A stretch of DNA of 61,393 nucleotides, counting the filler, from Candidatus Woesearchaeota archaeon CG1_02_57_44 (GTDB lineage: Archaea; Nanobdellota; Nanobdellia; Woesearchaeales; CG1-02-57-44), in the NCBI GenBank assembly GCA_001871415.1. It is 4 parts of 4 records of this genome, joined end to end, with 100 filler letters (N's around TTAATTAATTAA, not from the genome) between each part and the next. Parts side by side here need not be neighbours in the genome. Positions count along the whole stretch, not along the records: positions 18,614 to 40,109 come from MNWW01000057.1; 3 more parts are not named here. One strand, written 5' to 3'. The position numbers and the translations under genes are program-made. Positions 13,180-44,718 of this stretch are shown piece by piece (positions within the stretch are counted from its first letter, which is position 1; each line of letters begins with the position of its first letter). The notes beneath the pieces were generated by a model, which searched no databases, was not told the DNA's origin, and was given only the letters and a program-made list of their open reading frames with translations.

Positions 13180-13216
13180 ACCACGCCCACCTACAGGAAC
13201 CAGGAATCAACATATC

Positions 13217-14765: not shown

Positions 14766-15233
14766 ATGGATAACAAAGGCCAGGCAGCCATGGAGTTCCT
14801 CATGACCTATGGCTGGGCAATTATCGTGGTCCTTGCGGCCATAGGGGCTCTCGCGTATTTCGGAGTCCTGAGCCCGACCACGATACTGCCACAGCGCACC
14901 ACGTTTCCGTCACCTCTGCCCAACATCGACGTAGCATCCGTGAGCGCGCTGTCAGACAGTGTCGAAGTCGCGTTCACCAACAATGTCGGCTACACCATCG
15001 ATGTCATCTCGGCAGGGGCTGCGGCTACCGATGACTGCGGCGGAACAGTCGCGCTGGAGAACCCACCGACAAATGTAGTGAATGGCGCCAAGTTCAAGGT
15101 GAACTGGTCATGCGGCGGCGGTGTCACAGCAGGCAAGTTCAAGTCTGACTTGACCTTCTCGTACACCAACGACTACACCAACCAGACGCACCAGCATAGT
15201 GGCTCTGTCGCGGGCAACGCTGTCTCCAGTTAA
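14766..15233 (+). CDS. Probable major pilin
   Basis: NKG|QAAMEFLMTYGWAIIVVLAAIGALAYFGVLSP; own TTTATATA box (about 14711), GAGGTGA RBS and a T-rich terminator. Confidence 0.88.
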   Translation: MDNKGQAAMEFLMTYGWAIIVVLAAIGALAYFGVLSPTTILPQRTTFPSPLPNIDVASVSALSDSVEVAFTNNVGYTIDVISAGAAATDDCGGTVALENPPTNVVNGAKFKVNWSCGGGVTAGKFKSDLTFSYTNDYTNQTHQHSGSVAGNAVSS

Positions 15234-15246
15234 TCTGAGACAGTAC

Positions 15247-15276
15247 ATTTTTATTTTTCCTTCTCTTTTCTTTTCT
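15247..15276 (+). terminator. Oligo-T archaeal terminator
   Basis: TTTTTTATTTTTCCTTCTCTTTTCTTTTCT immediately after the pilin stop. Confidence 0.65.
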
Positions 15277-15277
15277 C

Positions 15278-16006: not shown

Positions 16007-16080
16007 GACATCCTTAGGAGACCATCCTTGGGAAACCATCATTGGCCCGTCCTACCTCCCCTGCACCGCATTTCAAACGC

Positions 16081-17403: not shown

Positions 17404-17513
17404 CCATGCAATCCTGGGGTCGAAGATATATAAACATGACGGATGCGGGTGCGTGCTACGCTCCATGCACATCTGCGCAGGAGCGCACGGCCCCTGCCAG
17501 CGCAAACGTCGCA

Positions 17514-17567
17514 ACCTGAACAATCGACACCTAGACGATTGACACCTGAACAATCGACACCTGAACG
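17514..17567. repeat. 15-bp tandem repeat (about 3.6 copies) between divergent promoters
   Basis: ACCTGAACAATCGAC / ACCTAGACGATTGAC / ACCTGAACAATCGAC / ACCTGAACG. Confidence 0.8.
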
Positions 17568-17644
17568 CCTCATGCGGATACCGCGGGCTTTCACCGAAAC
17601 CTTTATATCATTCGCACCAATACGTCTCCCAGGGGGGAGTAGAC

Positions 17645-18283
17645 GTGAAAGCAGTTCTCTTTGACTTTTGGGGCACACTGGTGGAAAATGGCGTGTATCC
17701 TAGCCCGGTGCGGCAGGTACGACGCGTCATGGGACTACGGGACACGCCATTCCCTGAATTCATCACGACGTTCGAGCATAGTTTTATGACCAAGCGATTC
17801 GCCACGCTCAAGGACGCATTCGAGGAGTCAGCGAAAGCATTCGGCCTTGAGCCCAGTATACCGATGATAGAGAGCCTTATTGGCATGTGGAACAAGAACA
17901 CCTTGCTCGCCAAGCTCTATCCTGAATCAACCGATGTCCTGCTACGGCTCAAGGAGAAAGGGGTCAAGATAGGGCTGGTCAGCAACACGGACAGCTTCTC
18001 AGTCACAGCCGTGCTCGAGAAATACAAGCTGCCTGAGCTCTTTGACCACATCAATCTCAGCTGCGATGCCGGCATGCTCAAGAGCGACCCGGAGATGTTC
18101 GCTACCTCCCTAAAGGCCCTTGGCGTGTCCAAGGACGACGCCGTCATGGTAGGGGACTCCATGGAGTCGGACATCCTCGGCGCCCAGGCAGCAGGCATCA
18201 GAGCGATCCTCATCGACAGGCGCAACCGCAGGGAGTACGAAGACAAGATACTCAACCTGGCCGAACTGGAGCGCATGGCATGA
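17645..18283 (+). CDS. HAD-superfamily hydrolase
   Basis: AVLFDFWGTL, LVSNT, K.DP..F and MVGDSMESDILGAQAAG motifs. Confidence 0.92.
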   Translation: MKAVLFDFWGTLVENGVYPSPVRQVRRVMGLRDTPFPEFITTFEHSFMTKRFATLKDAFEESAKAFGLEPSIPMIESLIGMWNKNTLLAKLYPESTDVLLRLKEKGVKIGLVSNTDSFSVTAVLEKYKLPELFDHINLSCDAGMLKSDPEMFATSLKALGVSKDDAVMVGDSMESDILGAQAAGIRAILIDRRNRREYEDKILNLAELERMA

Positions 18284-18513
18284 GCTGCATCTTCTGCAAG
18301 ATAGCCAATGGAGATCTCCCCTCTGACATGGTCCTTGAGAGTGAGCAGGTCGTGGCGTTCCTGGACATCAACCCGTCAGCAAAAGGTCATGCGCTGGTAG
18401 TCCCTGTGACGCACGTGGAGGACCTGACAGCGCTCGACGATACCCTTGTCTCCGCGGTCTTCTCGACCGCTCGCGAGGTCGGCAAGGCGTTGATGGACAC
18501 CCTCGGCTGCGAG
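18280..18513 (+). CDS. HIT-family protein (truncated by assembly gap)
   Basis: MSCIFCKIANG, AFLDINP, GHALVVP. Confidence 0.88.
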
Positions 18514-27331: not shown

Positions 27332-28633
27332 TCACATATCCCTTAGATATCCCCAATTATGCAACAGGTCCGAATCCTCCTGCCACCGATCACCGATATC
27401 CGTGCGATAGTACATGTTCGGGATGAGCACGTTCTGCACGCGTGTATACGCCTGCTTCTTTGCCTGGCGCATGGTGATGCCTGTGCCGCATACGACCAGC
27501 ACGACGCCACTGGTGCCGGTGACGACCCAGTTGCCGTCGCCATTGGTGCGCTTGACATCCACGATGTGCACGCCATCGGTGGGCTTCTTGAAGATGACAG
27601 CAGCATCCTTGCTGTAGGTATCAAAGGTCTCCTGATCCTTGAATGGATACGGTGAGGTGACGATGCGCACGCCCACCTGATAACCCGTCTTCACCTTCAA
27701 CTCCGGCTTCTCCCCGCGAGCAAGCGCAGCAAAAAACTGTCCCATGGGAACGCGCATGCCTTCCTGCTGGATGCTGATAGTGGGATAGCCAAAGCGCGAC
27801 GTCCACTCCAGAGGATAGATGCCGTTCGCATTGACGATAGTATTGATATCGATGTATCCAGCGTATCCTTCGGCGACCAGCTTAGCCTCCATCTTCTTGA
27901 GCGTGTTGTTGAATATCTTGTTGGGCGCGCTCCAGAACATGCTGGTACCCATCTCGCCTGTGGCAGGTCCAAGATTGCCGGGAAACAGTTTCTTGTGCTC
28001 AAAGTTGACATTGATTGGCGTGATGAACTCCTTGCCATTGAAGAACGCGCCGACCGCGACTTCAACGCCAGTCACCCGCTTCTGGAGTTGGAACACTTTG
28101 ATGTGATAAGCCCATGTCTTCTTGTAGGCCTCAAGCACGCGGACAACATCAGCGCCGTCGTCCTCCTGCCCGATGAACAGCAGGCGCTTGATGTTCTGTG
28201 CTTCTCCACTTGGCTTGATGACATATTTGTTGGGATTCTGCTTGACAAACGCGATAGCGTCATCAAAGCTCGTGAATTCCTGGTAGGGAAGGATATTGAT
28301 GCCTGCCTTCTTCATTTCTTCCTGGCCAAAGGTACGGTCGTCTTCAAGCATGTCGGTATAGGCAGAGCCGCCGATGACCGCCTTGCCCTTGGCGCGTAGC
28401 TCCTGGGCGAGTGTGCCCTGGCCAAGGACATCATCAAAGAGTATGACATCAGCCCAGTCGATATGCTCTTCCCAGTCCTCCACCTTCTCGACAAAGCCGT
28501 CGCCAATCTCCCTTTCAGCAGGTACTTTGACATAGTACTTGACATCATGCCCTTCCTTGGCAATGGTCCAGGCGAGATCAACACTCAATCCTTCCAGAGA
28601 AACAAAGAGGAATTTTTCCACGTTAGGTCGCAT
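27332..28633 (-). CDS. PurD-like ATP-grasp ligase (phosphoribosylamine-glycine ligase family, divergent type)
   Basis: LEDDRTFG, YVIKPSG, EHKKLFPGNLGPATGEMG, LEWTSRFGYP and YYRTDIG motifs. Confidence 0.8.
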   Translation of the reverse strand: MRPNVEKFLFVSLEGLSVDLAWTIAKEGHDVKYYVKVPAEREIGDGFVEKVEDWEEHIDWADVILFDDVLGQGTLAQELRAKGKAVIGGSAYTDMLEDDRTFGQEEMKKAGINILPYQEFTSFDDAIAFVKQNPNKYVIKPSGEAQNIKRLLFIGQEDDGADVVRVLEAYKKTWAYHIKVFQLQKRVTGVEVAVGAFFNGKEFITPINVNFEHKKLFPGNLGPATGEMGTSMFWSAPNKIFNNTLKKMEAKLVAEGYAGYIDINTIVNANGIYPLEWTSRFGYPTISIQQEGMRVPMGQFFAALARGEKPELKVKTGYQVGVRIVTSPYPFKDQETFDTYSKDAAVIFKKPTDGVHIVDVKRTNGDGNWVVTGTSGVVLVVCGTGITMRQAKKQAYTRVQNVLIPNMYYRTDIGDRWQEDSDLLHNWGYLRDM

Positions 28634-28656
28634 TTCAAAAGAGATTGCGGTGCTTC

Positions 28657-29148
28657 TTAAGCTTTTTGATGCTGCAGCCTCAGAAAGAACTCTTTCGTCG
28701 CCAAAAGCGACGCCACGGCAGAAGGCACCAGCGTGCGCCACTTCCCGTCAGGAGAACGCATCTCCCGGATGATGGTGCCGGATATATGGGGCAGCAGCTC
28801 CAGCCGAACAACGGTAATACCCGCGCCTTGTAATAATCCGGCAACATAGTCATTTCCCGTGTAGGCCGAATCAAAATCCAGCCCCTGCACTTGCGAAAGC
28901 CACGTATCATTATCAGGCATATCCTCAAGCAGGACGATGTCATAGGCAATGACCCCCGATTCCAGCAACGCTGCCCTGATAAGCAGCTCTCGCTGAGCTG
29001 CGCTCCAGGGATTTTCCTTCGTGCCCGCTATCTGTGCGCTGCCGATAGCGATGAGTGCCCGGTCACATTCCTGCAGGATGCGCCGGACATCCTCCAGATG
29101 ACCAAGATGAAACGGCTGAAACCGCCCAATGAACAATCCGGTGCGCAT
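28657..29148 (-). CDS. nadM: Nicotinamide-nucleotide adenylyltransferase
   Basis: FIGRFQPFHLGH, IGSAQ, ENPW, ISGTIIR and WRTLVP motifs. Confidence 0.88.
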   Translation of the reverse strand: MRTGLFIGRFQPFHLGHLEDVRRILQECDRALIAIGSAQIAGTKENPWSAAQRELLIRAALLESGVIAYDIVLLEDMPDNDTWLSQVQGLDFDSAYTGNDYVAGLLQGAGITVVRLELLPHISGTIIREMRSPDGKWRTLVPSAVASLLATKEFFLRLQHQKA

Positions 29149-29703: not shown

Positions 29704-30915
29704 ATGAAAGCCATCATCGCGTATTCAGGAGGCCTGGACACCAGCTACTGCGTCTTGTGGTTACTGGACCAGGGATATGAAGTCTACACGCTCACTGTGG
29801 ATACCGGAGGATTCACGCAGGAGGAGCTCACACAGATAGCGACCAAAGCAAAAGAGCTTGGCGCCTCAGAGCATCGCACCGTTGACGGCAAGCCGGAAAC
29901 ATATAAAGAGTTCGCGGCCTATGTCATCAAGGGCAATATCCTGCGAGGGGGAGTTTATCCCTTGTGCGTCGGCGCAGAGCGCATGGTACAGGCGCGTCAC
30001 GCAGCGCTGTACGCAAAAGAGATAGGCGCGCAGGCAGTCTGCCATGGTTCGACAGGAGCAGGCAATGACCAGGTGCGCTTTGACGTCGCGCTCATGGCGC
30101 TCGCGCCTGAGGTGAAGATAATCGCCCCCATCCGCGAGCTGGAGATAAGCCGCGACGCTGAGCTGGCCTATCTGAAAGAGAAGGGTTTTGATTTCCCAGC
30201 GAAGAAAAAGACTTACAGCATTAATCAGGGCATTCTGGGAACGACCATCGGCGGCGGCGAGACCCATGACCCCTGGCAGAGCGTACCCGACAGCGCGTAT
30301 CCGGCGACCGTGCCTGCGGCAAAGGCTCCGGACCAGAAACTCACATTGACAATCACCTTTGAGCATGGCCTCCCTGTCGCGCTCGACGGCAAAGCACCAT
30401 CCACCGAGGGAGCGGCGCTGCCAGGCCAGCACATCCTTCAGGAGCTCAACACCCTGGGCGCAAAGCACGGCGTCGGCCGCGGCATCCACCTGGGAGATAC
30501 CATCCTGGGAATCAAAGGCCGTATCGCTTTTGAGGCACCGGGGGCGACCATCCTGATAAACGCGCACCGTGAGTTGGAAAAACTCGTCCAAAGCAAGCGC
30601 CAGCAGGCGATGAAGCAGACGATAGCTGACGAGTATGGCCGGCTTCTGCACGAAGGCCTGTGGCTCGATCCGGTGATGCGCGACCTGGAGGCGGCGATGG
30701 ACAAGAGCCAAGAGCGCGTGTCCGGCGAGGTTCGCGTCTCCTTGTTCAAAGGGGCTATCACTGTCGAAGGCGTCAAGAGCCCGCATTCGCTCATGGACGC
30801 GAAAGCGACCTACGGCGAGGGCAGCAAGCTCTGGAACGGCAAAGATGCCGAGGGGTTCTGCAAGATATACGGCATACAAAGCAAACTGGCGATGCACCAT
30901 GCGAATAACACCTGA
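29704..30915 (+). CDS. argG: Argininosuccinate synthase
   Basis: AYSGGLDTS, HGSTGAGNDQVRF and GIKGRIAFEAP motifs; TTATAAAT box upstream. Confidence 0.95.
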   Translation: MKAIIAYSGGLDTSYCVLWLLDQGYEVYTLTVDTGGFTQEELTQIATKAKELGASEHRTVDGKPETYKEFAAYVIKGNILRGGVYPLCVGAERMVQARHAALYAKEIGAQAVCHGSTGAGNDQVRFDVALMALAPEVKIIAPIRELEISRDAELAYLKEKGFDFPAKKKTYSINQGILGTTIGGGETHDPWQSVPDSAYPATVPAAKAPDQKLTLTITFEHGLPVALDGKAPSTEGAALPGQHILQELNTLGAKHGVGRGIHLGDTILGIKGRIAFEAPGATILINAHRELEKLVQSKRQQAMKQTIADEYGRLLHEGLWLDPVMRDLEAAMDKSQERVSGEVRVSLFKGAITVEGVKSPHSLMDAKATYGEGSKLWNGKDAEGFCKIYGIQSKLAMHHANNT

Positions 30916-31978
30916 TAAGATTGCCTCGAGCACGCGTAACGCGAATCTGTCGAGCGAGTTGGAGCTCTCGGACAAGATCATCTGCAAGCAAGGCTATGTC
31001 ATAGCCGGCAAGATCCTGAATGATAAGAGCACCTACAACACGTTGGAGCTGCCCAGCGGACGTCAGAGCCGTGTGTGCAAGAATGACATCGTGGTAGGCG
31101 TGCTCGGCGCGCGAAACGCGCTGCGCGGCTATTCTGGGGTGGTGCCCGACACCCTCAAAGCAGGCGATGTCATCCAGGTGCTCAATCTGGGTGGCGTCAT
31201 GGGAAAGTTCACTTCCGGCAACCCAGCAATAGGATCGCCGTTCAACATCGAGGTGCTCGGCAGCGTGCTCTCCTTTCCGGATTTCACCGAGCGCATAGGC
31301 CATCCAGCGCACGTGCTCGATGGCACCGTGAAGCCACAGGACAGCCTGGGCAAGACACCACCGCTGGTCATCGTCACCGGAACCAGCATGCAAGCCGGAA
31401 AGACGACCGCCGCGTGTGAGATCGTCAAGCAGCTGACGCATCAGGGTCTCAAGATAAATGCCGCGAAGCTGACCGGCATCAGTCTGATGCGTGACATGCT
31501 CGAGATGAAGGACGTCGGAGCCAAACGGGTCGTGGACTTCACCGACGCAGGCATTGTATGCACCAACCCGGACAATGTAGTGCATGTCGCAAAAGGAATC
31601 GTCACCACGCTGGCCAAGGACGAGCCCGATTGCATTGTCCTGGAGTTCGGCGATGGCATCATGGGCCAGTATGGCGTCATGCAGCTGCTGCTGGACAAAG
31701 AGCTTATGTCCAATGTCAAAGCCCACATCCTGGCAGCTAACGACCAGGTGGGCGCGTGGGGCGCGGTGAAGTATCTGGAAGGAAAGTGCCCGGCAATTGA
31801 CGCCATAACAGGTCCTGCGACCGACAACACCGTAGGCACATCATTTGTGACAACCCTCGGCGTGCAGGCCGCCAACGCGATGATGCAAGGCGAGCTGCTT
31901 GGTAAGATTGCTGCAAGAAAACTCGGACTCACAATAAAGGTCATCCCGAGCACCACAAACAAAGGTGTAGCCCAATGA
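30899..31978 (+). CDS. Uncharacterised P-loop protein (DUF1611-like) inside the arg operon
   Basis: GTSMQAGKTT, AAKLTG, DFTDAG and VLEFGDG motifs; overlaps both argG and argC. Confidence 0.75.
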   Translation: MRITPDKIASSTRNANLSSELELSDKIICKQGYVIAGKILNDKSTYNTLELPSGRQSRVCKNDIVVGVLGARNALRGYSGVVPDTLKAGDVIQVLNLGGVMGKFTSGNPAIGSPFNIEVLGSVLSFPDFTERIGHPAHVLDGTVKPQDSLGKTPPLVIVTGTSMQAGKTTAACEIVKQLTHQGLKINAAKLTGISLMRDMLEMKDVGAKRVVDFTDAGIVCTNPDNVVHVAKGIVTTLAKDEPDCIVLEFGDGIMGQYGVMQLLLDKELMSNVKAHILAANDQVGAWGAVKYLEGKCPAIDAITGPATDNTVGTSFVTTLGVQAANAMMQGELLGKIAARKLGLTIKVIPSTTNKGVAQ

Positions 31979-33030
31979 GCCAGAGCAATCCAGTGAAGAT
32001 CGGCATCATCGGCGGCTCTGGCTATGTGGGAAAGGAACTCCTACGCATCTTGCTGCAGCATCCTGGTGTCGAGATAGCGGCAGTGAGCAGCCGAAGCAGC
32101 GCAGGAAAATCAATTGCCGACGTCCATCGCTCACTGGCAGGGCTCACTACCCTCACCTTCACGGGCGACATCAAGGCCATGGCGAACCTGGACCTCGTCT
32201 TTGTCGCAGTCAGCCATGGAGATTCCATGGCCATGGTCAAGGAGCTCCACGATACGAATCCAAAGCTCAAGATAATCGACTTGGGCGCTGACTTTCGCCT
32301 CACGCCAGAACGGTTCGAACAGACATACAAGCAGCAACACTGCTGCCCTGATATCAAAGCAGTGCCTGGCCTGCCCGAGCTCAATGCGGAAGCGATAAAG
32401 CATGCGACCATCGTCGCGAACCCCGGCTGCTTCGCCAACACCGCCATCCTGGGATTGGCGCCCATAGCCGCGCACATCCTGCCCACGGTGCAGGTCACAG
32501 CCATAACGGGCAGTTCCGGATCCGGCGCTCAGCCAAAGCAGGCAACGCATCATCCAGAGCGCGACGGCAATGTGGCAGCGTACATGATTCTGTCGCATCG
32601 CCATGTCCCTGAGATAGAGCAGGCGCTCAACGACGTAGTGCAATCTGTGCCACAGTCCCCTGACAGCCAACCGCAGCCCTTCGCCATCCAATTGGTCCCC
32701 CAGTCAGGACCCTATGCCCGCGGCATCCTCGCCACTTGCTTTGCCACGCTCAAGGACCCCTCAGTGGACGCCAAGAAGCTATACCAGGAGTGGGCTGATC
32801 CGACAACGCGCCCGTTCGTGCGCATCCGCGACGATTCGCCAAAGCTCAGCGATGTGCGCGGCTCCAACTTCATAGACATCGCCGTGCACCAGCAAGGCAA
32901 CACCGTGGTGATACTGTCAGCACTTGACAACATGGTCAAGGGAGCCGCAGGCAACGCCGTGCAGTGCATGAACCTGATGCTGAAGCTGCCAGAGACGACC
33001 GGTCTGCTGCAGGCGCCGCTTTCGCCCTGA
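31975..33030 (+). CDS. argC: N-acylglutamyl-phosphate reductase
   Basis: GGSGYVG, IDLGADFRL, VANPGCF, GSSGSG and DNMVKGAAGNAVQ motifs. Confidence 0.94.
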   Translation: MSQSNPVKIGIIGGSGYVGKELLRILLQHPGVEIAAVSSRSSAGKSIADVHRSLAGLTTLTFTGDIKAMANLDLVFVAVSHGDSMAMVKELHDTNPKLKIIDLGADFRLTPERFEQTYKQQHCCPDIKAVPGLPELNAEAIKHATIVANPGCFANTAILGLAPIAAHILPTVQVTAITGSSGSGAQPKQATHHPERDGNVAAYMILSHRHVPEIEQALNDVVQSVPQSPDSQPQPFAIQLVPQSGPYARGILATCFATLKDPSVDAKKLYQEWADPTTRPFVRIRDDSPKLSDVRGSNFIDIAVHQQGNTVVILSALDNMVKGAAGNAVQCMNLMLKLPETTGLLQAPLSP

Positions 33031-33135
33031 TATCACGATAGACATCAGACCGCATCAAGCAGGAACATGAGACGCTGTCCAACGCACGAATCAGAACCCA
33101 TCGTAAGACATCCAGAACCCCATGAGCTGATACCC

Positions 33136-34380
33136 ATGCCAGGAACAAACGAGCAGAAACCATCATCCGCCACACAGGACATCATGTCCATGGAGGACGA
33201 GCACCAGCTGTACACCTACAGCAAGTACCCTATCGCTATAGAGAAAGGCGAAGGAGCATTCGTCTATGACATAGACAGCAACCGCTACCTTGATTTCTAC
33301 GGCGGCCACGCAGTCGCATTAACGGGCCATTGCCATCCCAAGGTCGTGCATGCCATCCAGAACCAGGCAGCGACACTCATCTTCTATAGCAACGCGGTCT
33401 ACAACAGCACGCGGGCCAAAGCCGCTGAAGCGCTCGTGAAGCTCACACCAGAAGGTATCACCAAGGTATTCTTCTGCAACTCCGGCGCTGAGGCGAATGA
33501 GACAGCTATCAAGGCCGCGCGCCTGCATACCGGACGCACACAGATAATCGCCATGAAAGAGGGATTCCATGGACGAACCTACGGATCTATGAGCGCGACC
33601 GGCATTGACAAATATCGCATCTTCCCGCCATTGGTGCCCGGTATAGATTTCGCGGAGTTCGGCAGCCTGGAATCCATCAAAGCGCTCGCGTCACAAGAGA
33701 CCGCGGCGATCATCCTTGAGCCTATCCAGAGCATGGCAGGCGTCCGTGTCGCGGCGAAGGAGTATTTTATCGCATTGCGAAATCTCTGCGACGAGCTGGG
33801 CATCCTGCTCATCTTCGATGAAGTGCAGACCGGCATGGGCCGCACTGGCGCGCCCTTCTACAGCACGCTCATCGGCGTGACGCCTGATATCATCACAAGC
33901 GCGAAAGGCATCGCGTCGGGAGTCCCCATGGGCGCATGCTTCCTGCAGGAGAAGATAGCAGCAGGCATCAAGCCAGGCCAGCAGGGCTCGACCTTCGGCG
34001 GCGGACCGCTCGCGTGCGCAGCTGCGCTTGCCACTGCAGAGCTGTTGCAAGAGCAGCGTCTGCCAGAGAACGCCGCGGCGATGGGAGACTACTTGATGCG
34101 AAAGCTCGTCAGCATGCCACACGTCAAGGACGTGCGCGGGCAGGGGCTGCTCATCGGCATAGAGTTCGGCCAGGACGCGAAACCATTGGTCAAGCAGCTG
34201 CTCAAGCACCAGGTGCTGGTGAGCGGCTCCGAGGATCCCAAGACCATCCGCCTACTGCCTCCGCTGGTCATCAGCCAGGAGCACGCGGATATCTTCCTCG
34301 CGGCGCTCAAGAGCGCGACAGACGAAGTCTTTGGAGCGAAGGATACAGTAAAGCAATCCACTGCAGGTGATGCGCAATGA
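33136..34380 (+). CDS. argD: Acetyl/succinylornithine aminotransferase
   Basis: NSGAEANE, FHGRT, DEVQTGMGRTG, SAKGIASG and STFGG motifs; start uncertain. Confidence 0.92.
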   Translation: MPGTNEQKPSSATQDIMSMEDEHQLYTYSKYPIAIEKGEGAFVYDIDSNRYLDFYGGHAVALTGHCHPKVVHAIQNQAATLIFYSNAVYNSTRAKAAEALVKLTPEGITKVFFCNSGAEANETAIKAARLHTGRTQIIAMKEGFHGRTYGSMSATGIDKYRIFPPLVPGIDFAEFGSLESIKALASQETAAIILEPIQSMAGVRVAAKEYFIALRNLCDELGILLIFDEVQTGMGRTGAPFYSTLIGVTPDIITSAKGIASGVPMGACFLQEKIAAGIKPGQQGSTFGGGPLACAAALATAELLQEQRLPENAAAMGDYLMRKLVSMPHVKDVRGQGLLIGIEFGQDAKPLVKQLLKHQVLVSGSEDPKTIRLLPPLVISQEHADIFLAALKSATDEVFGAKDTVKQSTAGDAQ

Positions 34381-35381
34381 ATTTCATCAGCACTGCCGAC
34401 GTGACCGGTAAGGAACTGGCAAGCATCCTGTCAGCAGCCACGCTGGGCAAGAAGCAGGGATGGAAACCCAAGCTCAAGGGCAAGACCGTCGGCCTCCTGT
34501 TCTTCAACCCCTCATTGCGGACACGCACATCGTTTCAGGCAGGGCTCATAAAACTGGGCTCAGTTCCGATTGCCCTGAGCGCGACGGATTCCTGGGCATT
34601 AGAGCTCATCGACGGCTCCATCATGGACGGCAGCACAGCTGAGCATGTCAAGGATGCGGCGCGGGTGCTCTCGACCTACCTGGATGCCATCTGTATCCGC
34701 TCGTTTCCTGGCATGAAGGACTGGGACGACGACAAGAAGGACGCGCTCATCCAGGGATTCGCCAAGCATGCCACGGTCCCGGTCATCAACATGGAGTCCT
34801 GCCTATGGCACCCATGCCAGGCGCTAGCGGACGCGCTCACCATGCAAGAGGTGCTGGGAAAGACTAAGGGTAAGACCTTTGTGCTGAGCTGGGCGAATCA
34901 TCCGCGACAATTGCCCATGGCAGTCCCCAATTCAGCGCTACTTATCGCAGCACAGATGGGCATGAACGTGCGACTCGCCTGCCCCAAGGGCTATGAGCTG
35001 GATAGTGATATCCTCAACCAGGTGAAGCAGACCGCGGTGAAGCAGGGAGGTTCATTCAGCACCCATAATGATCAGGCAGAAGCATTCAAGGGCGCGCAGA
35101 TAATCTACGCCAAGTCCTGGACCCCTCCGGTGCTGGTGGGCAAACCCGACGAAGACACTAAGCTCCGCAAGAAATTGTCCTGGACCATCACCAAGGAGAA
35201 GATGGCAATGACCAATAACGCTGCCTTCATGCACTGCCTGCCCGTGCGGCGAAATGTAGTGGTGACCGACGAGGTCCTGGACAGCAAGCAATCGGTCATC
35301 ATCCAGCAGGCCGAGAACCGCATGCACTCTCAGAATGCGCTGCTCCTCAAACTGCTGGGAGGCAAGAGCAAAAGCAAGTGA
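34377..35381 (+). CDS. argF': N-acyl-ornithine carbamoyltransferase (AOTCase/SOTCase type)
   Basis: FNPSLRTR, W.LE..DG.IMDG...EH insertion, HPCQ, HPRQLPMAVPNS, YAKSW and HCLPVRRN motifs. Confidence 0.92.
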   Translation: MNFISTADVTGKELASILSAATLGKKQGWKPKLKGKTVGLLFFNPSLRTRTSFQAGLIKLGSVPIALSATDSWALELIDGSIMDGSTAEHVKDAARVLSTYLDAICIRSFPGMKDWDDDKKDALIQGFAKHATVPVINMESCLWHPCQALADALTMQEVLGKTKGKTFVLSWANHPRQLPMAVPNSALLIAAQMGMNVRLACPKGYELDSDILNQVKQTAVKQGGSFSTHNDQAEAFKGAQIIYAKSWTPPVLVGKPDEDTKLRKKLSWTITKEKMAMTNNAAFMHCLPVRRNVVVTDEVLDSKQSVIIQQAENRMHSQNALLLKLLGGKSKSK

Positions 35382-35391
35382 GGTAACAACC

Positions 35392-36300
35392 ATGAACCGC
35401 GTCAATAATCTCAAGGAGATCTTACCGTATGTGCGCACCTTCCAGGGCGCCACCTTCGTCATCAAGATAGGCGGCGAAGTGTGCGGCGAGAAGTATCTGG
35501 ACGAGATTGCCCAGCAGCTCTCGCTCCTGCATCACATCGGCATCGCTGTCGTCGTCGTGCATGGAGGCGGTCCGCAGATGGACGCCTGGAGCAAGCGTAT
35601 GGGCATCGAGCGCAAGGTCGTCGCGGGACGGCGCATAACTGACCTGGAGACCCTGCAGGCTACCAAGATGATCTTCGCTGGGCTCATCAGCACTGATCTG
35701 GTGACCGCGTTGCGAAAGCAGGGAGCGCCCGCAGTGGGTCTGACAGGAGCCGACGGCTATCTGCTGACCGCCGAGAGGCGCGCACCCATCGACGTGCAGG
35801 AGAATGGAAAGAAAGTCAAGGTCGATTTCCAGCATGTCGGTGATATCACGAAGGTCAATACAACATTGCTGCTGGGGCTTATCGAACAGGGATTGATCCC
35901 CGTCGTGGCCTCGCTCGGCGCTGACGATGAAGGCAATACCTACAATATCAACGCCGACACCGTTGCCAGCAAGCTGGCCATAGCGCTGCAGGCGGAGAAA
36001 TACATCATCCTCACCGACGTTGCCGGGATATTGCGCAACAAGGATGACGCGAAGACATTGGTATCGTACGCGGATATCGATGCCTTGCAGACGATGCTCG
36101 ACAAGGGCTCCATAACGGATGGTATGCGTCCGAAGGTGACGACGTGCATGGACGCGGTGAAGAACGGCGTGCACCGCACGCACATCATCGACGGCACGCG
36201 CGAAGGGACGCTGCTCCAGGAGCTCTTTGTCAACGAGGGCTGCGGCACGATGATTGTGGACAAGAAAGAGAAGAAAGCATACGAGAAAGAGCTCAAGTGA
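35392..36300 (+). CDS. argB: N-acylglutamate kinase
   Basis: VIKIGG, VHGGGPQ, GRRITD, YNINADT and GMRPKV motifs. Confidence 0.93.
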   Translation: MNRVNNLKEILPYVRTFQGATFVIKIGGEVCGEKYLDEIAQQLSLLHHIGIAVVVVHGGGPQMDAWSKRMGIERKVVAGRRITDLETLQATKMIFAGLISTDLVTALRKQGAPAVGLTGADGYLLTAERRAPIDVQENGKKVKVDFQHVGDITKVNTTLLLGLIEQGLIPVVASLGADDEGNTYNINADTVASKLAIALQAEKYIILTDVAGILRNKDDAKTLVSYADIDALQTMLDKGSITDGMRPKVTTCMDAVKNGVHRTHIIDGTREGTLLQELFVNEGCGTMIVDKKEKKAYEKELK

Positions 36301-36340
36301 ACAGGAAGAAGAGACATAACGAATGCGAAAGGCGCGACCA

Positions 36341-37408
36341 ATGAAACTACTCAAGCAGCTGGTGGGGATCAAATCCCTCAGTGGCCATGAAGGCCCGATG
36401 GCGGATGAGGTAGAGTCATTCCTGAAGTTGCGGGGATTTTCACCCAAGCGCTGGAAGAACAACGTCTGGGCCATCAAGCAGGGCGCCATAAGTAATGCGG
36501 TCAAGGTCAAAGGAACCGACAACACACACAAGGCAAACGCAATACAATCCAAGACCATACTGTTCTGCTCGCATCTTGATACGGTCGAGACAGGCGCACC
36601 TGCCAAAGCGATGGCCAATGGAAAAATGCTCAGCGGCCTTGGCGCCGTTGACGCGAAGGCGAGCGTCGCCGCCATGCTGGAAGCGTTCATCGTAGCAAAG
36701 CCGAAGCCAGGAACAAACATCCTCATCGCGCTCACCCAGGAAGAAGAGACAGGTGGGAAAGGCATGCCCGTCATGGCAGCCAAGCTACCCGCGCATGCCG
36801 CTGCCATCGTGGGAGAGCCCACCAAAATGCAGCCATGCATCGCGCAGAAAGGCCTGCTCATCGCCAAGCTTACCGTCGCAGGCAAGACAGCGCACGCTTC
36901 GCGCCCGCAGCAGGGCAAGAACGCCATCATGCTGCTGGCAGAAGACATTTTACGTCTGCAAAAGCTTGCGTCTGGCAAGCTACCAAGCCACCCGCTGCTC
37001 GGCAAAGTCACCATCACACCCACGATGATGACGGGCGGCAGCGCGCGCAATGTGGTGCCTGCGCACGCCGAGGCGATTCTTGATATCCGCACCATACCCG
37101 GAGCGCATCAGGAGATTCTGACGTTGCTGAATAAGACCGTCAAGAGCACTATCACACCGCTGAGCATCCGCTTGGTGCCAAAGGCGACAGCCAAGACAGC
37201 AAACATCGCGAAGCTTGCGGCGAAGGCATCAGGCAAGAGATTCATCAGCAGTACAGGCATGAGCGACTGGGCGTTCCTCTCTTGTCCTGCGGTGAAGATA
37301 GGTCCAGGCGATCCCACGCTCTCGCATACCAAGCAAGAGCGCATCAGCGAAACCGAATATAAGAAAGCAGTCAAAGTCTATACCGCCATCATGGAGGAAT
37401 ACACATGA
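36341..37408 (+). CDS. argE: M20-family deacylase (ArgE-like, probably acyl-citrulline deacylase)
   Basis: SHLDTV, GLGAVDAK, EEETGG, VGEPT, GKTAHAS and SHTKQE motifs. Confidence 0.85.
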   Translation: MKLLKQLVGIKSLSGHEGPMADEVESFLKLRGFSPKRWKNNVWAIKQGAISNAVKVKGTDNTHKANAIQSKTILFCSHLDTVETGAPAKAMANGKMLSGLGAVDAKASVAAMLEAFIVAKPKPGTNILIALTQEEETGGKGMPVMAAKLPAHAAAIVGEPTKMQPCIAQKGLLIAKLTVAGKTAHASRPQQGKNAIMLLAEDILRLQKLASGKLPSHPLLGKVTITPTMMTGGSARNVVPAHAEAILDIRTIPGAHQEILTLLNKTVKSTITPLSIRLVPKATAKTANIAKLAAKASGKRFISSTGMSDWAFLSCPAVKIGPGDPTLSHTKQERISETEYKKAVKVYTAIMEEYT

Positions 37409-38730
37409 AGCCTCTCTGGGACAAGGGAAAGAAGCTGGACGCCACGGTGCTGGATTTCACCGCCGGCCAGGACGCTATCCTCGATACGCAGCTCGCCTAT
37501 TACGACGCTATCGCCTCTTGCGCGCATGTCAAGGCGCTGGCGAAAGCCGGACTGCTCAGCAAGCCTGAAGCAAAGACGCTGGTCACCAAACTTGCGGCTA
37601 TCGCAGATAAGGCAGCCGACGGTAAATTCGCCATCGACGCAGAGGATTGCCATTCAGCCATCGAACAGGCCCTGGGCGATATGGGCAAAAAAGTGCACCT
37701 GGGACGCTCGCGCAATGATCAGGCAGCGACAGCCATGCGCCTCTACCTCAAGGACATGCTGCTCGACGCAGGGTCTAAGCAAGCATTGCTCGCAGATATG
37801 TTGCAGTCTATGGCCCTGAAACATAAGGACACTCCTATGCCAGGATACAGCCACACGCGAAAGGCCATGGTCTCCAGTGTCGGGCACTGGCTTGGATCGT
37901 ACGCTGAGCTCTTGTCGCTGACCGTGCCGCGGCTCGGCGTCATCGACCTCTCTCCTTTAGGATCGGCGAGTGGCTTTGGCACTTCTGCCACCGTAGACCG
38001 GACGTTCGAGGCGAAGCTCCTGGGATTTGCCGGCGTGCAGCAAAACGCGCTGGGCTGTCAGGCTGGACGCGTCATGGCCGAGGCGCACGCGTGCCAGCAG
38101 ATGCTCTCGATCATGACAGTGCTCAGCCAACTGGCTGCGGACATCATCTTCTTCTCTGCCGAGGGCATCGGCTATGTGAAGATCAGCCCGGATATCGCGA
38201 CCGGAAGCTCGCTCATGCCAAATAAGCAGAACCCTGATGTCTTTGAGCTGGTGCGCGCGAAAGCGTCATCTGTGCTCGGCCACTGCACTGCGGTACAGTC
38301 CCTTGGTATAGGTATGCTCTCCGGCTATAATCGTGACTATCAGCAGGCAAAAGCGCACGTGATGCAGGCCGCCGCAGAGACGCTGGCAAGCCTGGAGATA
38401 CTGTCCCACGCGATGCGACACATCAGCATCGACGACGATGCATGCCTGAAGGCCTGCACATCAGACATGGCAGCGACGGATGTCGCGATCCAGTTGGCGA
38501 TAAAAGGAGTGCCCTTCCGCGACGCGTATCGTAAGGCCGTGCCCAAGGAAGTAAAGCCCCTGACCAAAACAGATGCATTAAGATTAGTGGATGCCCGAAA
38601 ATCTATCGGCGCGACAGGCAATCCGACCACTATGGCAAAGAACATAAAAACAGCGCAGGATGCGCTACTCACATTCAGTAAGCAATTGGAGGGATGTAGT
38701 TCATGGGATGCGGAACAATCGAAGGCATAA
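37405..38730 (+). CDS. argH: Argininosuccinate lyase
   Basis: HLGRSRNDQ, MPGYSH, TGSSLMPNKQNPD and GVPFRDAY motifs. Confidence 0.94.
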   Translation: MKPLWDKGKKLDATVLDFTAGQDAILDTQLAYYDAIASCAHVKALAKAGLLSKPEAKTLVTKLAAIADKAADGKFAIDAEDCHSAIEQALGDMGKKVHLGRSRNDQAATAMRLYLKDMLLDAGSKQALLADMLQSMALKHKDTPMPGYSHTRKAMVSSVGHWLGSYAELLSLTVPRLGVIDLSPLGSASGFGTSATVDRTFEAKLLGFAGVQQNALGCQAGRVMAEAHACQQMLSIMTVLSQLAADIIFFSAEGIGYVKISPDIATGSSLMPNKQNPDVFELVRAKASSVLGHCTAVQSLGIGMLSGYNRDYQQAKAHVMQAAAETLASLEILSHAMRHISIDDDACLKACTSDMAATDVAIQLAIKGVPFRDAYRKAVPKEVKPLTKTDALRLVDARKSIGATGNPTTMAKNIKTAQDALLTFSKQLEGCSSWDAEQSKA

Positions 38731-39878
38731 GAGTCGCCTCAAAGAGTTGCGGCACGAAAGAGACCGGCAGGGACCTGGCCATCTGGGTCGCTGACGGGCC
38801 CTGCCAGGCCGCAGGCGTCTTCACCCAGACCAGCATGCCAAGCTATGCCGTGACCAGCAACCGAAGGAAGATAGCAGGTGATGTGCAGGCCATCCTCGTG
38901 TCCGCAGGTGTAGCCAATGTCTTCACCGGAGCTGAAGGTGAGCAAGACGCTGATGAGATAGTCGCTCATGCAGCGGATGAGCTCGGTATCCCTCAGGAAT
39001 CAGTATTGTTCTTCACCACCGGCTTCATCGGATCACGTCTGCCGGTCGACGCCATCAAGGCATCATTGTCCGGCATCGCCGACGAGCTCGCGGACGATGA
39101 TGAACAGGCGGCGAGGGCGATCATGACCACCGACACCGTGTCCAAGACTGTGCAGGTGAAAGTATCGACCAGCGTGGGTGATGTGACCATCGGCGCGACA
39201 GCCAAAGGAAGCGGCATGGTCAATCCGAACATGGCGACGCTGCTCTGCTTCGTCTCCACTGATGCCGCCATATCCCATGACGTGCTCCAGCCCATGCTGA
39301 AGCGCTGCGTCGATAGGTCCCTGAACATGGTGGCCATCGATAATGATACGGCATTCTCAGACAGCTGCGTGATGCTGGCGACCGGCGCGGTGAAAGTGCG
39401 CGAGCGCGACCATGAGGCAGTGGAATCAGGATTGCTCGACTGCCTGACGCAGGTAGCGCGACTGATAGCCATGGACGGCGAGGGCTCTACACGCATGTTC
39501 GAGGTGCAGGTGACCGGGGGCCTCACCGAGGAGGACGCGCGCAAAGTGGCAAAGTCCATAGCGTCATCCATGCTGGTCAAGACCGCGGTGTTCGGCGAGG
39601 ATCCGAATGTCGGCAGGGTATTATGCGCCGCGTCGTACGCTGGAGCGAAACTGGACGAAAAGCGCCTGGCGGTGTCGGTTGTGCATGACGACCTGCAGAT
39701 CCCCATGGTCAAAGACGGCGTGGTGCTCAGCTATGACCGGCGCAAGGCCGCTGCGGTCATGAAGAGCGATTGTCCGGTATTTGTCTTGGAGCTGGGCATG
39801 GGGGAGGGAGCAGCGACCGCCTTCGGCTGCGATCTCACGGACCAGTATGTCAGCATCAACGCTGATTTCCCGACGTGA
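38703..39878 (+). CDS. argJ: Ornithine acetyltransferase family protein (divergent)
   Basis: AIMTTDT, KGSGMVNPNMATLL (autocleavage Thr), DGEGSTR, KTAVFGEDPN and GCDLT..YV.INA motifs. Confidence 0.88.
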   Translation: MGCGTIEGIRVASKSCGTKETGRDLAIWVADGPCQAAGVFTQTSMPSYAVTSNRRKIAGDVQAILVSAGVANVFTGAEGEQDADEIVAHAADELGIPQESVLFFTTGFIGSRLPVDAIKASLSGIADELADDDEQAARAIMTTDTVSKTVQVKVSTSVGDVTIGATAKGSGMVNPNMATLLCFVSTDAAISHDVLQPMLKRCVDRSLNMVAIDNDTAFSDSCVMLATGAVKVRERDHEAVESGLLDCLTQVARLIAMDGEGSTRMFEVQVTGGLTEEDARKVAKSIASSMLVKTAVFGEDPNVGRVLCAASYAGAKLDEKRLAVSVVHDDLQIPMVKDGVVLSYDRRKAAAVMKSDCPVFVLELGMGEGAATAFGCDLTDQYVSINADFPT

Positions 39879-40209: not shown

Positions 40210-40277
40210 ACGGGCAGTGTCCGCCTATTAAAGCTTTGCTGCGAAACCGTTATAATATCTGATAGTATCACCGAGGC

Positions 40278-40946
40278 ATGCACCTGCCAGCAGGCGAGCG
40301 AGCGCCGGCATCAGCGCACCTTCTCGTCGGGACGGCCAGCGGCGCGGTCTTCCGCTATCAGGAGCCATGCGTGGATCCGCTGCGGCCGGTGTTCGAGGTC
40401 TATGGCCCCATCCTCGCCCTGGGCCATCACCGGGACGATGTGGTCGCCATGTATAAGACGGTCAGGAATGGCCATGAATTAGTGCTCTTGCGCAATCTCA
40501 CGCGCGCGTGCGAGCCCCATCCGTTCGCTGGCATCCCGTCCACGACCAGCGTGCAGACCTATGTCCTCTCGGAGGGCACCCTTGAGCTACGCACGAATGG
40601 AGGCCGACTCTCCTTCGACCTGAGCGAGGTGACCACGACCATGCGCTACCAGAACGGCTGGAGCACCATGGCGTTCAGGCAGCCCTTTTCCTGGAATGAT
40701 TATCACTGCAGACTGTATCCGAGGGCAACACCGGGATATGCTCCTGCGGGCGCTGGTGATAAGGCTCCTGTGCCCATGCGGATATCCGAGGGCCGGAGGA
40801 TATCCCTCGCATCCTTGGTGGTGCACCGGCAGGGATCTGACCTTGAGCGCATCCTGCGCAATGATGTCACCTGCGTGACCGTGGTCAGAACTGCTCATCA
40901 GCGAGCCGAAGGTAGTCTTTCACGCGTTGCAAGGTCTGTTCTATGA
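40278..40946 (+). CDS. Hypothetical protein
   Basis: 222-aa ORF with TTATAATA box about 25 nt upstream; overlaps the convergent gene by 62 nt. Confidence 0.55.
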   Translation: MHLPAGERAPASAHLLVGTASGAVFRYQEPCVDPLRPVFEVYGPILALGHHRDDVVAMYKTVRNGHELVLLRNLTRACEPHPFAGIPSTTSVQTYVLSEGTLELRTNGGRLSFDLSEVTTTMRYQNGWSTMAFRQPFSWNDYHCRLYPRATPGYAPAGAGDKAPVPMRISEGRRISLASLVVHRQGSDLERILRNDVTCVTVVRTAHQRAEGSLSRVARSVL

Positions 40947-41346
40947 GAAATTTCTCCACTTTCTGCTCAAAGAGTTCCGCGAGACCCTGACCTTCAGCAA
41001 TGCGGTATTTGGCACGCAACCGCTCGACCAGGAAAAGTTCCCGAAACCTACGCAACTGCCTGCGGATATTTGACTCGTGCACGCCTAACAAGGGCAGCCC
41101 AGCGTCCTTGCGCAGCACTTTCACCTGTTCCGTAAGGTCACGCGCGCTCAGCCATTTCTGTCCTTTTCGCGCCTCAAGAAGCGCGTGCAGCACGTCAACC
41201 ACGCTGTCTCGGGAGTCTCCTGGCTGCAAGAGCCCGATGGACAGGCAGATACGTTTGCACAGAGCGCGCTTGCTTATCTGATAGGGCTTCTCGTATCGCC
41301 GTATGACTATCTCAAACAACGGCGCTTCTTTGGCAAAGGTTCCCAT
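40885..41346 (-). CDS. Putative winged-helix protein
   Basis: IRRYEKP, CLSIGLLQPGDSRD and HESNIRRQLRRFRELFLVE (recognition helix/wing-like). Confidence 0.7.
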   Translation of the reverse strand: MGTFAKEAPLFEIVIRRYEKPYQISKRALCKRICLSIGLLQPGDSRDSVVDVLHALLEARKGQKWLSARDLTEQVKVLRKDAGLPLLGVHESNIRRQLRRFRELFLVERLRAKYRIAEGQGLAELFEQKVEKFLIEQTLQRVKDYLRLADEQF

Positions 41347-41481
41347 GATGACCACACACCCATGCATTGCAGGAGTATCCACACGAGCTGGTCCATTGCG
41401 CTGTATGCAACGCTCCCAACTTGTCCCTCAACAGCTCATACCACGGTAACGTCCCACGACAGGACGCAACCCCCTGCATTA

Positions 41482-41730
41482 TATGTTTAATCCTGATTCA
41501 TCCTATGTTTAATCCTGATTCATCCTATGTTTAATCCTGATTCATCCTATGTTTAATCCTGATTCATCATATGTTTAATCCTGATTCATCCTATGTTTAA
41601 TCCTGATTCATCCTATGTTTAATCCTGATTCATCCAATACGGTTAAGTCCTGATTCATCCTATGTTTAATCCTGATTCATCCTATGTATGTTTAATCCTG
41701 ATTCATTCAATACTGTTTAGTCCTGTTTCT
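41482..41730. repeat. 22-bp tandem array (about 11 units)
   Basis: Unit TATGTTTAATCCTGATTCATCC; seven head-to-tail copies 41482-41635, then variants; the last degenerate unit overlaps the tfe stop. Confidence 0.95.
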
Positions 41731-42241
41731 TGTCCACTTTGGCCAGGATCTTCTCAAGCTCAGCCACTTGCGCTTCTATGTTGCTGATGGTCTTATCATT
41801 CTCCACAGGCATGAGCAGCTTACCGCATTCTGGGCAACGGAAATCAAAGTTCATAGCGTGCTCAAAATCCATGCGTAGGGTAAGATCAGGACAGATATAG
41901 AACTGGCCTGTGCGCTCTTTCTCCAGCCTGCCGCGCAGTTTCTCTATCTTCTGGTGCTTGAGCGAGATGTAAAGGTCAGGGACCCGCTTCTTGTTAAATA
42001 TCCAGCTGTAGATGTACCATCCTTTCTGGCGGTCCTTGCGTCGCGTATAGGTGACCAGGTTCACATGGAAGAGCTTGTAGAGGATGTTGCGCACGGTCTT
42101 GATGTCCATGTCAGAAAGGGCAGCGAGTTTGAATTCCGAGACTTTCTTGCGGTTCTTGCGAAGGATGCCTATAAGTGCTACTGCCTCAGGACCACCAACT
42201 TCTTCCACTACCTCCGTGATGACGGACTCGGTTACACGCAT
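41717..42241 (-). CDS. tfe: Transcription factor E (TFE-alpha)
   Basis: VRNILYKL...LVTYTRRKDRQKGWYIYSW wHTH; YICP...AMNFDFRCPECG zinc ribbon. Confidence 0.92.
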   Translation of the reverse strand: MRVTESVITEVVEEVGGPEAVALIGILRKNRKKVSEFKLAALSDMDIKTVRNILYKLFHVNLVTYTRRKDRQKGWYIYSWIFNKKRVPDLYISLKHQKIEKLRGRLEKERTGQFYICPDLTLRMDFEHAMNFDFRCPECGKLLMPVENDKTISNIEAQVAELEKILAKVDKKQD

Positions 42242-42335
42242 CTATGTTTTGTTTCCGAGTGAATTTAAATACTTTATGCTTAAAAATTATGCGTAAAGGC
42301 CTCCGCCCTCCTGCTTTGGATCAGCACCAGTAAGA

Positions 42336-42382
42336 TTTAAATAGTTGACCTGTGTCCCATTCTTGTTGACCTTAAGTCAACA
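42336..42382 (+). promoter_or_regulatory. TATA box plus palindromic operator upstream of groES
   Basis: TTTAAATA (42336-42343); TGTTGAC-CTTAA-GTCAACA (42364-42382); extra GTTGACCT half-site at 42344. Confidence 0.55.
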
Positions 42383-42534
42383 GAAACCAGTATAGTGGCC
42401 AATGCTGTAGAATGGCCAATGGAATGACAAGGACCGATGGATTGGCAAGTGCGAAGTACTTGTGAAGCAGACGGTATGCAGATGTATACAAGTACGACGG
42501 ACTTGAGGTCAGGGTAGATACAGGGGGTGAAAAC

Positions 42535-44461
<1,927 letters not shown>

Positions 44462-44718
44462 GCCCTGCCGATTTTTTCTTTTTACCTATTTTTTCGTGCG
44501 ATACCACATCGATACCAATACGATACTTTGACAGCAACACGATTAAAGGTGCAGGAGTCGACATGCCATCAAGAAGCTATCAACCACAACCCTTTTTAAG
44601 GGAGCATGCATCCGCCCCATAAGAGTGCGATTGCAACGATTGAGTACCAGAGCGCATTGAAAAAAAAACAGTCCGAACACATTAACATCAATCAAAACAA
44701 ATCAACCTGAACACCACC

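Follow-up and report, generated by a model that had tools for sequence, protein, structure and literature searches.

Which protein takes the step that commits glutamate to the synthesis of arginine in argF′-type operons is the question raised by a gene in a stretch of 61,393 nucleotides from Candidatus Woesearchaeota archaeon CG1_02_57_44 (assembly GCA_001871415.1), here called the window. The window is made of 4 contigs joined by N runs, and its arginine operon lies on the contig occupying positions 18614-40109. To our knowledge, many bacteria with such operons lack any enzyme that can be recognised as taking this step, and pathway reconstruction has long had a gap here. The gene, denoted X (30899..31978, + strand), encodes a protein of 359 amino acids that is predicted to be an alternative N-acyl (succinyl)-L-glutamate synthase from its open frame, the agreement of its start with that of homologues, its position ahead of argC and a structural model. 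X probably makes N-succinyl-L-glutamate and so commits glutamate to arginine synthesis in argF′-type operons; it is read as a first-step enzyme because of its fixed place in the arginine operon, its fold, the succinyl-type ArgF′ that accompanies it and its near-exclusion with ArgJ and ArgA. A prediction of this kind has been published by Price et al. ('GapMind 2026', 10.1101/2024.10.14.618325), who proposed that N-succinyl-L-glutamate is made by an alternative synthase in the family of the Steroidobacter protein A0A127FCT3.

Gene X and its place in arginine operons

X is a genuine gene. The frame 30899-31978 is free of stops on translation, and its start coincides with the N-termini of 29 aligned homologues (MKxxxDKIAS), which disfavours the upstream ATG at 30845 and the 377-amino-acid form that it would give. 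The ATG of X sits 17 nucleotides ahead of the argG stop codon, and at the other end the stop codon of X and the ATG of argC share the sequence ATGA. The initial annotation had described exactly such a 359-amino-acid open reading frame overlapping both argG and argC, and the frame, the start, both overlaps and the three motifs it listed were all recovered, namely GTSMQAGKTT (residues 161-170), AAKLTG (188-193) and DFTDAG (213-218). It had also denied X a GNAT fold, rightly so: neither a GNAT nor an amino-acid-kinase domain was found in X in Pfam and NCBIfam scans, the structural model shows no GNAT fold, and no NCBIfam family matched X at E<=0.01.

The neighbours of X were scanned across genomes, one genome being taken per species; 502 relatives of X were confirmed and the best 80 loci kept. 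These loci come from at least 7 phyla and include Bdellovibrionota, Gemmatimonadota, Planctomycetota, Verrucomicrobiota, Acidobacteriota (among them the isolate Geothrix campi SG10), Elusimicrobiota and proteobacterial and myxobacterial metagenome-assembled genomes (MAGs). In 76 of the 80 loci argC directly follows X; in the remaining 4 the locus stops no more than 347 nucleotides from X. The gene before X is argG on the same strand in 75 loci, the exceptions being L001-L004 and L068. An argF′ gene lies within the flank in 58 of 80 loci, 47 of the 51 loci that extend at least 7 kb downstream have an argE-like gene, and argJ was found at none of the 80. The operons of X hold a gene for every step of the pathway but the first. 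Classical ArgA (TIGR01890) did not score above cut-off in any of 6 X-bearing genomes, where the matches covered the ArgB kinase part only. The counts for argC, argF′ and ArgA bear out the expectation that homologues of X would be found in argF′ operons lacking argA, and together with the fold described below they agree with the earlier view of X as a non-GNAT P-loop protein tied to argF′-type arginine operons.

The relation of X to the other route into the pathway, ArgJ (PF01960), was examined in 35 X-bearing genomes. ArgJ was found in only two, the genome of the window and G002, a Gemmatimonadales MAG that holds locus L026, and it was unbroken in the window genome alone. The match in G002 (G002:C8:10295-11410) falls into three pieces, one of them with an internal TGA, and the split may reflect decay of the gene or a mistake of long-read assembly. 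In 101 evenly sampled Gemmatimonadota genomes X was present in 25 and ArgJ in 43, with both in 1 and neither in 34 (Fisher p 3e-6, a value that overstates the exclusion because related genomes are not independent). ArgF′ scored above cut-off in 21 of the same 101 genomes, and all 21 carry X. These three sets of counts (ArgJ in 2 of 35, the 101 genomes and the 21 with ArgF′) include the unpublished genome G058. The earlier claim that X replaces ArgA fits the 0 of 6 genomes with ArgA and the 2 of 35 with ArgJ, although the genome on which it was made is itself one of these two.

Near mutual exclusion is also a feature to be reckoned with if X were an analogue of ArgJ, that is, an acyl-recycling transferase returning the succinyl group of N-succinylornithine or N-succinylcitrulline to glutamate. 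Some carriers of X have no argE-like gene in the cluster, and a Steroidobacter case without ArgE has been published (10.1101/2024.10.14.618325), both of which would suit recycling. The M20 deacylase is nevertheless kept in 47 of the 51 operons with enough flank, the window genome has both X and ArgJ, and a priming synthase would still be needed and would stay missing, so that recycling by X is highly improbable.

The acyl group handled by these operons was read from ArgF′. In N-acetylornithine carbamoyltransferase (AOTCase), Glu at position 92 makes the enzyme specific for the acetyl substrate, and Ala, Pro, Ser or Val switches it to succinylornithine (GapMind 2026, 10.1101/2024.10.14.618325). 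By alignment to PDB chains, position 92 of X. campestris AOTCase corresponds to residue 88 of the window ArgF′, which is Ala (34638..34640, +); the window protein has MDGSTAEH where the Glu-carrying PDB chain has MDGDTEEH, and other PDB variants have Ala or Ser at this column. Among the 59 X loci in which the position could be read it was Val in 41, Ala in 6, Pro in 5, Ser in 1, Thr in 2, Gln in 3 and a gap in 1, and never Glu. Residues of the switched type thus account for 53 of 59 loci, comparable to the 90% of 70 ArgF′ proteins reported in GapMind 2026, where two had Gln, so that a few Gln exceptions occur in each set. N-acetyl- and N-succinyl-L-glutamate had both been considered as the product in the initial annotation; on these residues the acyl group is more likely to be succinyl, and the acetyl alternative has become the less likely of the two.

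The reaction that we infer for X is N-acylation of L-glutamate, most likely with the succinyl group of succinyl-coenzyme A (succinyl-CoA), a donor favoured by analogy with DgcN. The resulting N-succinyl-L-glutamate would be passed on to ArgB, ArgC, ArgD, ArgF′ and the M20 deacylase. The chemistry would take place on a BioD/DUF1611-like P-loop domain together with an all-beta domain specific to the family, and not on a GNAT fold; the P-loop would hold the nucleotide part of the acyl-CoA, as is assumed for DgcN, and conserved arginines of the N-terminal domain would bind carboxylates. If this is true, X takes the first step with a P-loop fold that is related to neither GNAT nor ArgJ, and auxotrophy calls would be corrected for Gemmatimonadota, Planctomycetota, Verrucomicrobiota, Acidobacteriota, Bdellovibrionota and others.

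The family is large, with at least 3,488 homologues at E<=1e-3 among 7,998 candidates scored; every name shown was 'hypothetical', and no precomputed Pfam domain was recorded for any of them. Searched against 1.84 billion representatives, the X profile matched 1,887 clusters (50% identity), of which 393 had E<=1e-30. One metagenomic protein of 626 amino acids (P0188, on 4 contigs) has X, from residue ~42 of the family profile onwards, fused to an ArgB-like kinase domain (127 bits to TIGR00761, where the cut-off is 151), an architecture that recalls the kinase-plus-synthase layout of classical ArgA. X and argB are not neighbouring genes, and the fusion lends weak support to a role of X in the arginine pathway. 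A predicted complex of X with ArgB scored 0.19 against a mark of 0.32, which speaks neither for binding nor against it. A search for longer forms of X gave 4 proteins, namely one X-ArgC, two ArgG-X and one of 758 amino acids without families, and P0227 is a further X-ArgC form. The X-ArgC and ArgG-X fusions were given no weight, as they join neighbouring genes and may be products of frameshift or gene calling.

Fold and candidate chemistry of X

The AlphaFold model of X has a mean predicted local distance difference test (pLDDT) of 92.2 and consists of an all-beta N-terminal domain followed by a P-loop alpha/beta domain. The N-terminal domain (residues 1-150; 30899..31348, +) reached a pLDDT of 90.4 when folded alone and is nearly all strands according to DSSP. 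No convincing solved relative of it was found, the best match in a wide VIA search having Z 3.0 and Foldseek giving none at E<=1e-3. The best VIA matches were Tudor, LexA C-domain and EF-Tu domain-II-like barrels, and with a Z of only 3.0 at most the fold was assigned to none of them.

The C-terminal domain (residues 151-359; 31349..31975, +) was compared over residues ~150-345 with 48,161 representative chains by VIA-align, independently of Foldseek. The first two ranks were taken by DUF1611 structures, 2g0t_B (Z 17.4, 179 residues aligned, root-mean-square deviation (rmsd) 2.8) and 2obn_A (Z 16.0, 183 aligned, rmsd 3.0), and rank 5 by DgcN, 7xrj_A (Z 15.1, 177 aligned, rmsd 3.1), whose PDB title calls it an N-acetyltransferase. 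BioD chains scored from 14.9 to 15.6, with 15.6 for 3of5 and 15.3 for another, CTP synthase, ApbC and HypB scored 14.5-15.0, and GTPases of the signal recognition particle (SRP) were also among the following matches. When the whole model was submitted to Foldseek, SRP54/Ffh, HypB and BioD came out on top (E 4e-7 to 4e-5, template modelling score about 0.38) and no DUF1611 chain was among the matches listed, the DUF1611 ranking coming from VIA-align only. In the model, the C-terminal domain of X is therefore described as a BioD/DUF1611-like SIMIBI P-loop domain, to which DUF1611 is the nearest solved family by only about 2 Z units.

An alignment of 30 diverse members of the X family has 62 invariant columns. 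In the C-terminal domain the invariant residues form the pattern G161-T-x-M-x-x-G-K-T169, K190, D199, D216, E249-x-G-D-G253 and T308-D-N310. The first of these is an extended Walker A loop, GTSMQAGKT in the window protein (residues 161-169; 31379..31405, +), with G161, T162, M164, G167, K168 and T169 invariant, and it aligns with the P-loops of both BioD and DUF1611. Lys190 lies in AAKLTG (31466..31468, +), and a Walker-B-like element E249-F-G-D252-G253 (31643..31657, +) follows, in which E249, G251, D252 and G253 are invariant. The invariant polar and charged residues of the N-terminal domain are S10, N14, Y46, E50, R55, D63, R72, N96 and R132.

By sequence, X is not a member of Pfam DUF1611. 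The match to PF07755 reached 20.4 bits for the 377-amino-acid form and 19.9 bits for the 359-amino-acid form, below the gathering score of 25 bits, and covered 38-42 residues around the P-loop of a 201-position model; the Geothrix homologue of X scored 15.8 bits. True DUF1611 proteins from Gemmatimonadota genomes scored 248-253 bits. No match to DUF1611_N (PF17396) was found in X at E<=1, whereas two true DUF1611 proteins gave 87-99 bits. An hhalign comparison of the 30-sequence X alignment with 10 true DUF1611 proteins returned a probability of 17% over 39 columns around the P-loop; the DUF1611 alignment is shallow (mean column identity 70%), so that a remote homology may still exist. Many X-bearing Gemmatimonadota genomes hold true DUF1611 genes (240-260 bits) elsewhere, outside the arginine operon, and in the DUF1611 search of Gemmatimonadota genomes the X genes themselves gave only sub-threshold P-loop matches of 20-24 bits. 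The description of X as DUF1611-like therefore stands for the fold of its C-terminal domain (Z 15.1-17.4) and falls for membership of the family.

Run against all PDB sequences, the X profile met BioD chains only, at E-values that are not significant (0.13-0.42) and over 33-41 residues. The alignment spans the P-loop to Lys190, and Lys190 stands opposite the BioD lysine at the end of the stretch aligned with the E. coli BioD chains; true DUF1611 proteins have an invariant Gln in the corresponding strand. Because X keeps this BioD-type lysine, absent from DUF1611, BioD-like ligation is a live alternative. X would then have the same role in the pathway but be an ATP-dependent amide ligase of the BioD or CTP-synthase kind, phosphorylating the carboxylate of free succinate, or of another acid, for attack by the amino group of glutamate, with no acyl-CoA taking part. 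The GTxxxxGKT P-loop, Lys190 and the E-x-G-D-G motif are all BioD-like, the only PDB chains reached by the profile belong to BioD, and in fold both BioD and CTP synthase rank near the top (Z 14.5-15.6). Yet the BioD sequence matches fall short of significance, the top fold matches are DUF1611 proteins, DgcN with its N-acetyltransferase title being one, and the conserved P-loop alone is no proof of ATP turnover, because DUF1611 also keeps its residues. Ligation by X is accordingly regarded as unlikely, and acylation from succinyl-CoA as the preferred reading. A bioD gene was found in 2 of 5 genomes examined, one copy being split over two frames.

Divergent X-like paralogues, 24-26% identical, were seen in 3 related small archaeal genomes (L098, 2133-3242, -; L099, 8270-9343, -; L097, 7662-8720, +). 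They retain the P-loop, K190, D199 and E249, and two of the three overlap or abut a gene for an M20 deacylase of the ArgE/DapE family, outside any arginine operon. As they adjoin M20 deacylases in 2 of 3 loci, a pairing of acylation with subsequent deacylation is suggested. The gene after the paralogue in L098 is pyrB, and an aldehyde dehydrogenase gene lies upstream in L099.

The same adjacency would also suit an accessory role, in which X would help, in a nucleotide-dependent manner, to insert metal into the M20 deacylase or to assemble it, or would be a regulator or scaffold of the pathway, and the first step would be carried out by an unrecognised GNAT encoded elsewhere. The SIMIBI metallochaperones HypB, UreG and ApbC are close in fold (Z 13.7-14.9), and X is kept in the window genome despite its ArgJ. 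On the other hand, X is found in operons without a nearby argE-like gene (L001-L004), its fixed partner is argC and not the M20 gene, its near-exclusion with ArgJ and ArgA is the pattern of a replacement and not of a chaperone, and the invariant Arg, Asp and Asn of its N-terminal domain are typical of a small-molecule site. An accessory function is thus quite unlikely, and a catalytic one in the first step is still to be preferred.

The operon of the window and its host

The window holds one tightly packed operon in the order argG, X, argC, argD, argF′, argB, an M20 argE-like gene, argH and argJ, all on the + strand. The argininosuccinate synthase gene argG (29704..30915) matched NF001770 with 370 bits (cut-off 334) and the Pfam Arginosuc_synth and C domains. 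Downstream of X follow argC (31975..33030; TIGR01850, 321 bits), argD for N-acylornithine aminotransferase (33067..34380; TIGR00707, 406 bits; Aminotran_3) and argF′ for N-acylornithine carbamoyltransferase (34377..35381; NF003384, 429 bits, cut-off 288), whose best PDB match is the X. campestris AOTCase. The N-acylglutamate kinase gene argB (35335..36300; TIGR00761, 232 bits) has no GNAT attached, its match to the ArgA model being to the kinase part only. The M20 deacylase gene (36323..37408; Peptidase_M20 and M20_dimer) is argE-like and a candidate N-acylcitrulline hydrolase, with all DapE and ArgE models below their cut-offs. The argininosuccinate lyase gene argH (37405..38730) reached 271 bits to TIGR00838 (cut-off 279.5) and matched Lyase_1. 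Its end is overlapped by 28 nucleotides by argJ (38703..39878; NF003802, 387 bits, cut-off 351; PF01960, 391 bits), and the contig ends at 40109.

The window ArgJ carries NMATLL with the Thr retained and is apparently intact. It is divergent: no ArgJ found elsewhere is more than 43% identical to it. A separate, identical 1.7-kb metagenome contig (L107) has the same argH-argJ junction, and other metagenome relatives of this ArgJ, at most 43% identical, have no X nearby. In a sample of the phylum comprising the window genome and 120 others, all of the same order and with listed sizes of 0.6-2.1 Mb, ArgJ was present in 3 of 121 genomes and occurred together with X in the window genome only. The initial annotation, in which argJ was not mentioned, had taken the first-step glutamate N-acyltransferase to be missing, a premise put in doubt by this apparently intact ArgJ, which matches a bifunctional equivalog model and closes the operon. 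The first step is therefore not clearly missing here, and the logic of filling a gap does not apply to this genome. No ornithine carbamoyltransferase was found in the genome, which is 82% complete, and the only other carbamoyltransferase is PyrB, encoded next to pyrD and carB. Ornithine from the classical ArgJ reaction would thus have no obvious route to citrulline.

The coexistence of X and ArgJ neither supports nor refutes the prediction at the level of the family. X may prime the pathway here while ArgJ has another or a redundant role. The window is in this sense a natural test case, in which X is retained even with ArgJ available and with no ornithine carbamoyltransferase found, and it prompts one to ask what part ArgJ plays in a pathway of the succinyl type. 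A more elaborate scheme joins the two proteins in one cycle: X would ligate free succinate to L-glutamate at the expense of ATP by BioD-type phosphorylation of the carboxylate, and the divergent window ArgJ would recycle the succinyl group from N-succinylcitrulline or N-succinylornithine to glutamate, giving a cyclic succinyl-type pathway in a small-genome archaeon with a bacteria-derived operon. This combination is distinctly speculative and rather improbable.

Several observations weigh against the view of X as an N-succinyl-L-glutamate synthase using succinyl-CoA. An apparently intact ArgJ, scoring above the cut-off of the bifunctional equivalog, is encoded in X's own operon. Descent, and the close tie of X to pathways of the argF′ type, confound the exclusion between X and ArgJ, and weak GNAT-region matches in genomes G002 and G003 leave room for short GNAT-type synthases. 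Sequence profiles tie X to DUF1611 through the P-loop only. The likeness to DgcN is one of fold and is no better than that to BioD (Z 15.6), and CTP synthase, ApbC and HypB, which use ATP or GTP or carry metals, are nearly as close. In the published table the predicted synthase is marked as lacking experimental evidence (PMC13759103).

The host looks like a small-genome archaeon with an arginine operon of bacterial type. The genome measures 1.53 Mb, and the other contigs of the window (1-18513, 40210-56036 and 56137-61393) encode an archaeal aIF-2 gamma (51867-53078, 575 bits), an archaeal-type LonB (44719-46578) and a FlaI-like ATPase (10812-12380). A bacterial-type GroEL (42809-44461, 820 bits) shares its contig with the archaeal LonB and aIF-2 gamma. 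Of the 121 genomes sampled from the phylum, only 3 have full-type X (G000, G225 and G205). The copies of X in phylum-sample genomes are 42-47% identical to the window X and those of Bdellovibrionota/Oligoflexia 62-65%, and since the bacterial copies are the closer ones, the sequences point to gene transfer from bacteria. A binning error is less likely. An archaeal-type nicotinamide mononucleotide (NMN) adenylyltransferase gene beside the operon (28657-29148, -), with homologues in 16 of 25 relatives at 22-40% identity, fits an archaeal contig without settling the matter. This gene overlaps by ~85 nucleotides the open reading frame of another gene immediately ahead of the operon, which is purD-like, divergent and of the ATP-grasp type (27332-28741, -; 112 bits, cut-off 288). 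A 557-amino-acid open frame (35422-37095, -) runs antisense to argB and the M20 gene and has probably arisen by chance in GC-rich coding DNA.

Comparison with known systems

The closest published counterpart is the family predicted in GapMind 2026 (10.1101/2024.10.14.618325), whose protein is hypothetical, almost always encoded in arginine operons, never found with ArgA and weakly similar to DgcN 7XRJ in Foldseek. X is likewise hypothetical and encoded with argB, argC, argD, argF′, argG and argH, often with argE, and never with classical ArgA, and both have a remote structural likeness to 7XRJ. By these matching descriptions the X family appears to be the published Steroidobacter A0A127FCT3 family. 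No Steroidobacter name turned up in cluster look-ups of 14 X homologues, where the names were those of MAGs or absent. The initial annotation had put X forward as a new class of first-step enzyme; the same reasoning, arrived at independently, is already found in GapMind 2026 for apparently the same family, and the window adds no new class because the idea has already been published as a prediction. What is new here is the argJ gene in an operon with X and the occurrence of the family in an apparently archaeal, reduced genome. The copy of X described here differs from the published family in just these respects, lying in an apparently small archaeal genome and sharing its operon with argJ, and the excerpted passages of GapMind do not discuss ArgJ.

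The D-glutamate N-acetyltransferase DgcN and the other DUF1611 proteins (PF07755 with PF17396; 7XRJ, 2G0T, 2OBN) resemble X in the fold class of the C-terminal P-loop domain, over 177-183 residues with an rmsd of 2.8-3.1, and in a shared succession of three motifs: GTxxxxGK(x)T comes first, then a strand that ends in TG, then E-G-x-G. The amino acid substrate of DgcN is the same as that proposed for X but of the opposite enantiomer. DUF1611 proteins have a Rossmann-like DUF1611_N domain where X has an all-beta domain without a solved relative, and a Gln where X has Lys190. The DgcN-DgcA pathway is mentioned in PMC10845958, and a literature search found no paper linking DUF1611 with arginine.

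BioD (1A82, 3OF5, 3FGN) is similar to X in fold (Z 14.9-15.6), and its extended P-loop and following lysine align with those of X. There is no significant sequence match between the two, and BioD sequence models do not match X. BioD is a single-domain enzyme that closes the ureido ring, whereas X has an extra domain of 150 residues and is encoded in an arginine operon.

Classical ArgA with its kinase-like and GNAT parts, bifunctional ArgJ and the short GNAT forms share with X only the step proposed for it, and X is nearly exclusive with ArgA and ArgJ. Their folds are unrelated to that of X, which has no GNAT, kinase or ArgJ domain and whose acyl group is probably succinyl.

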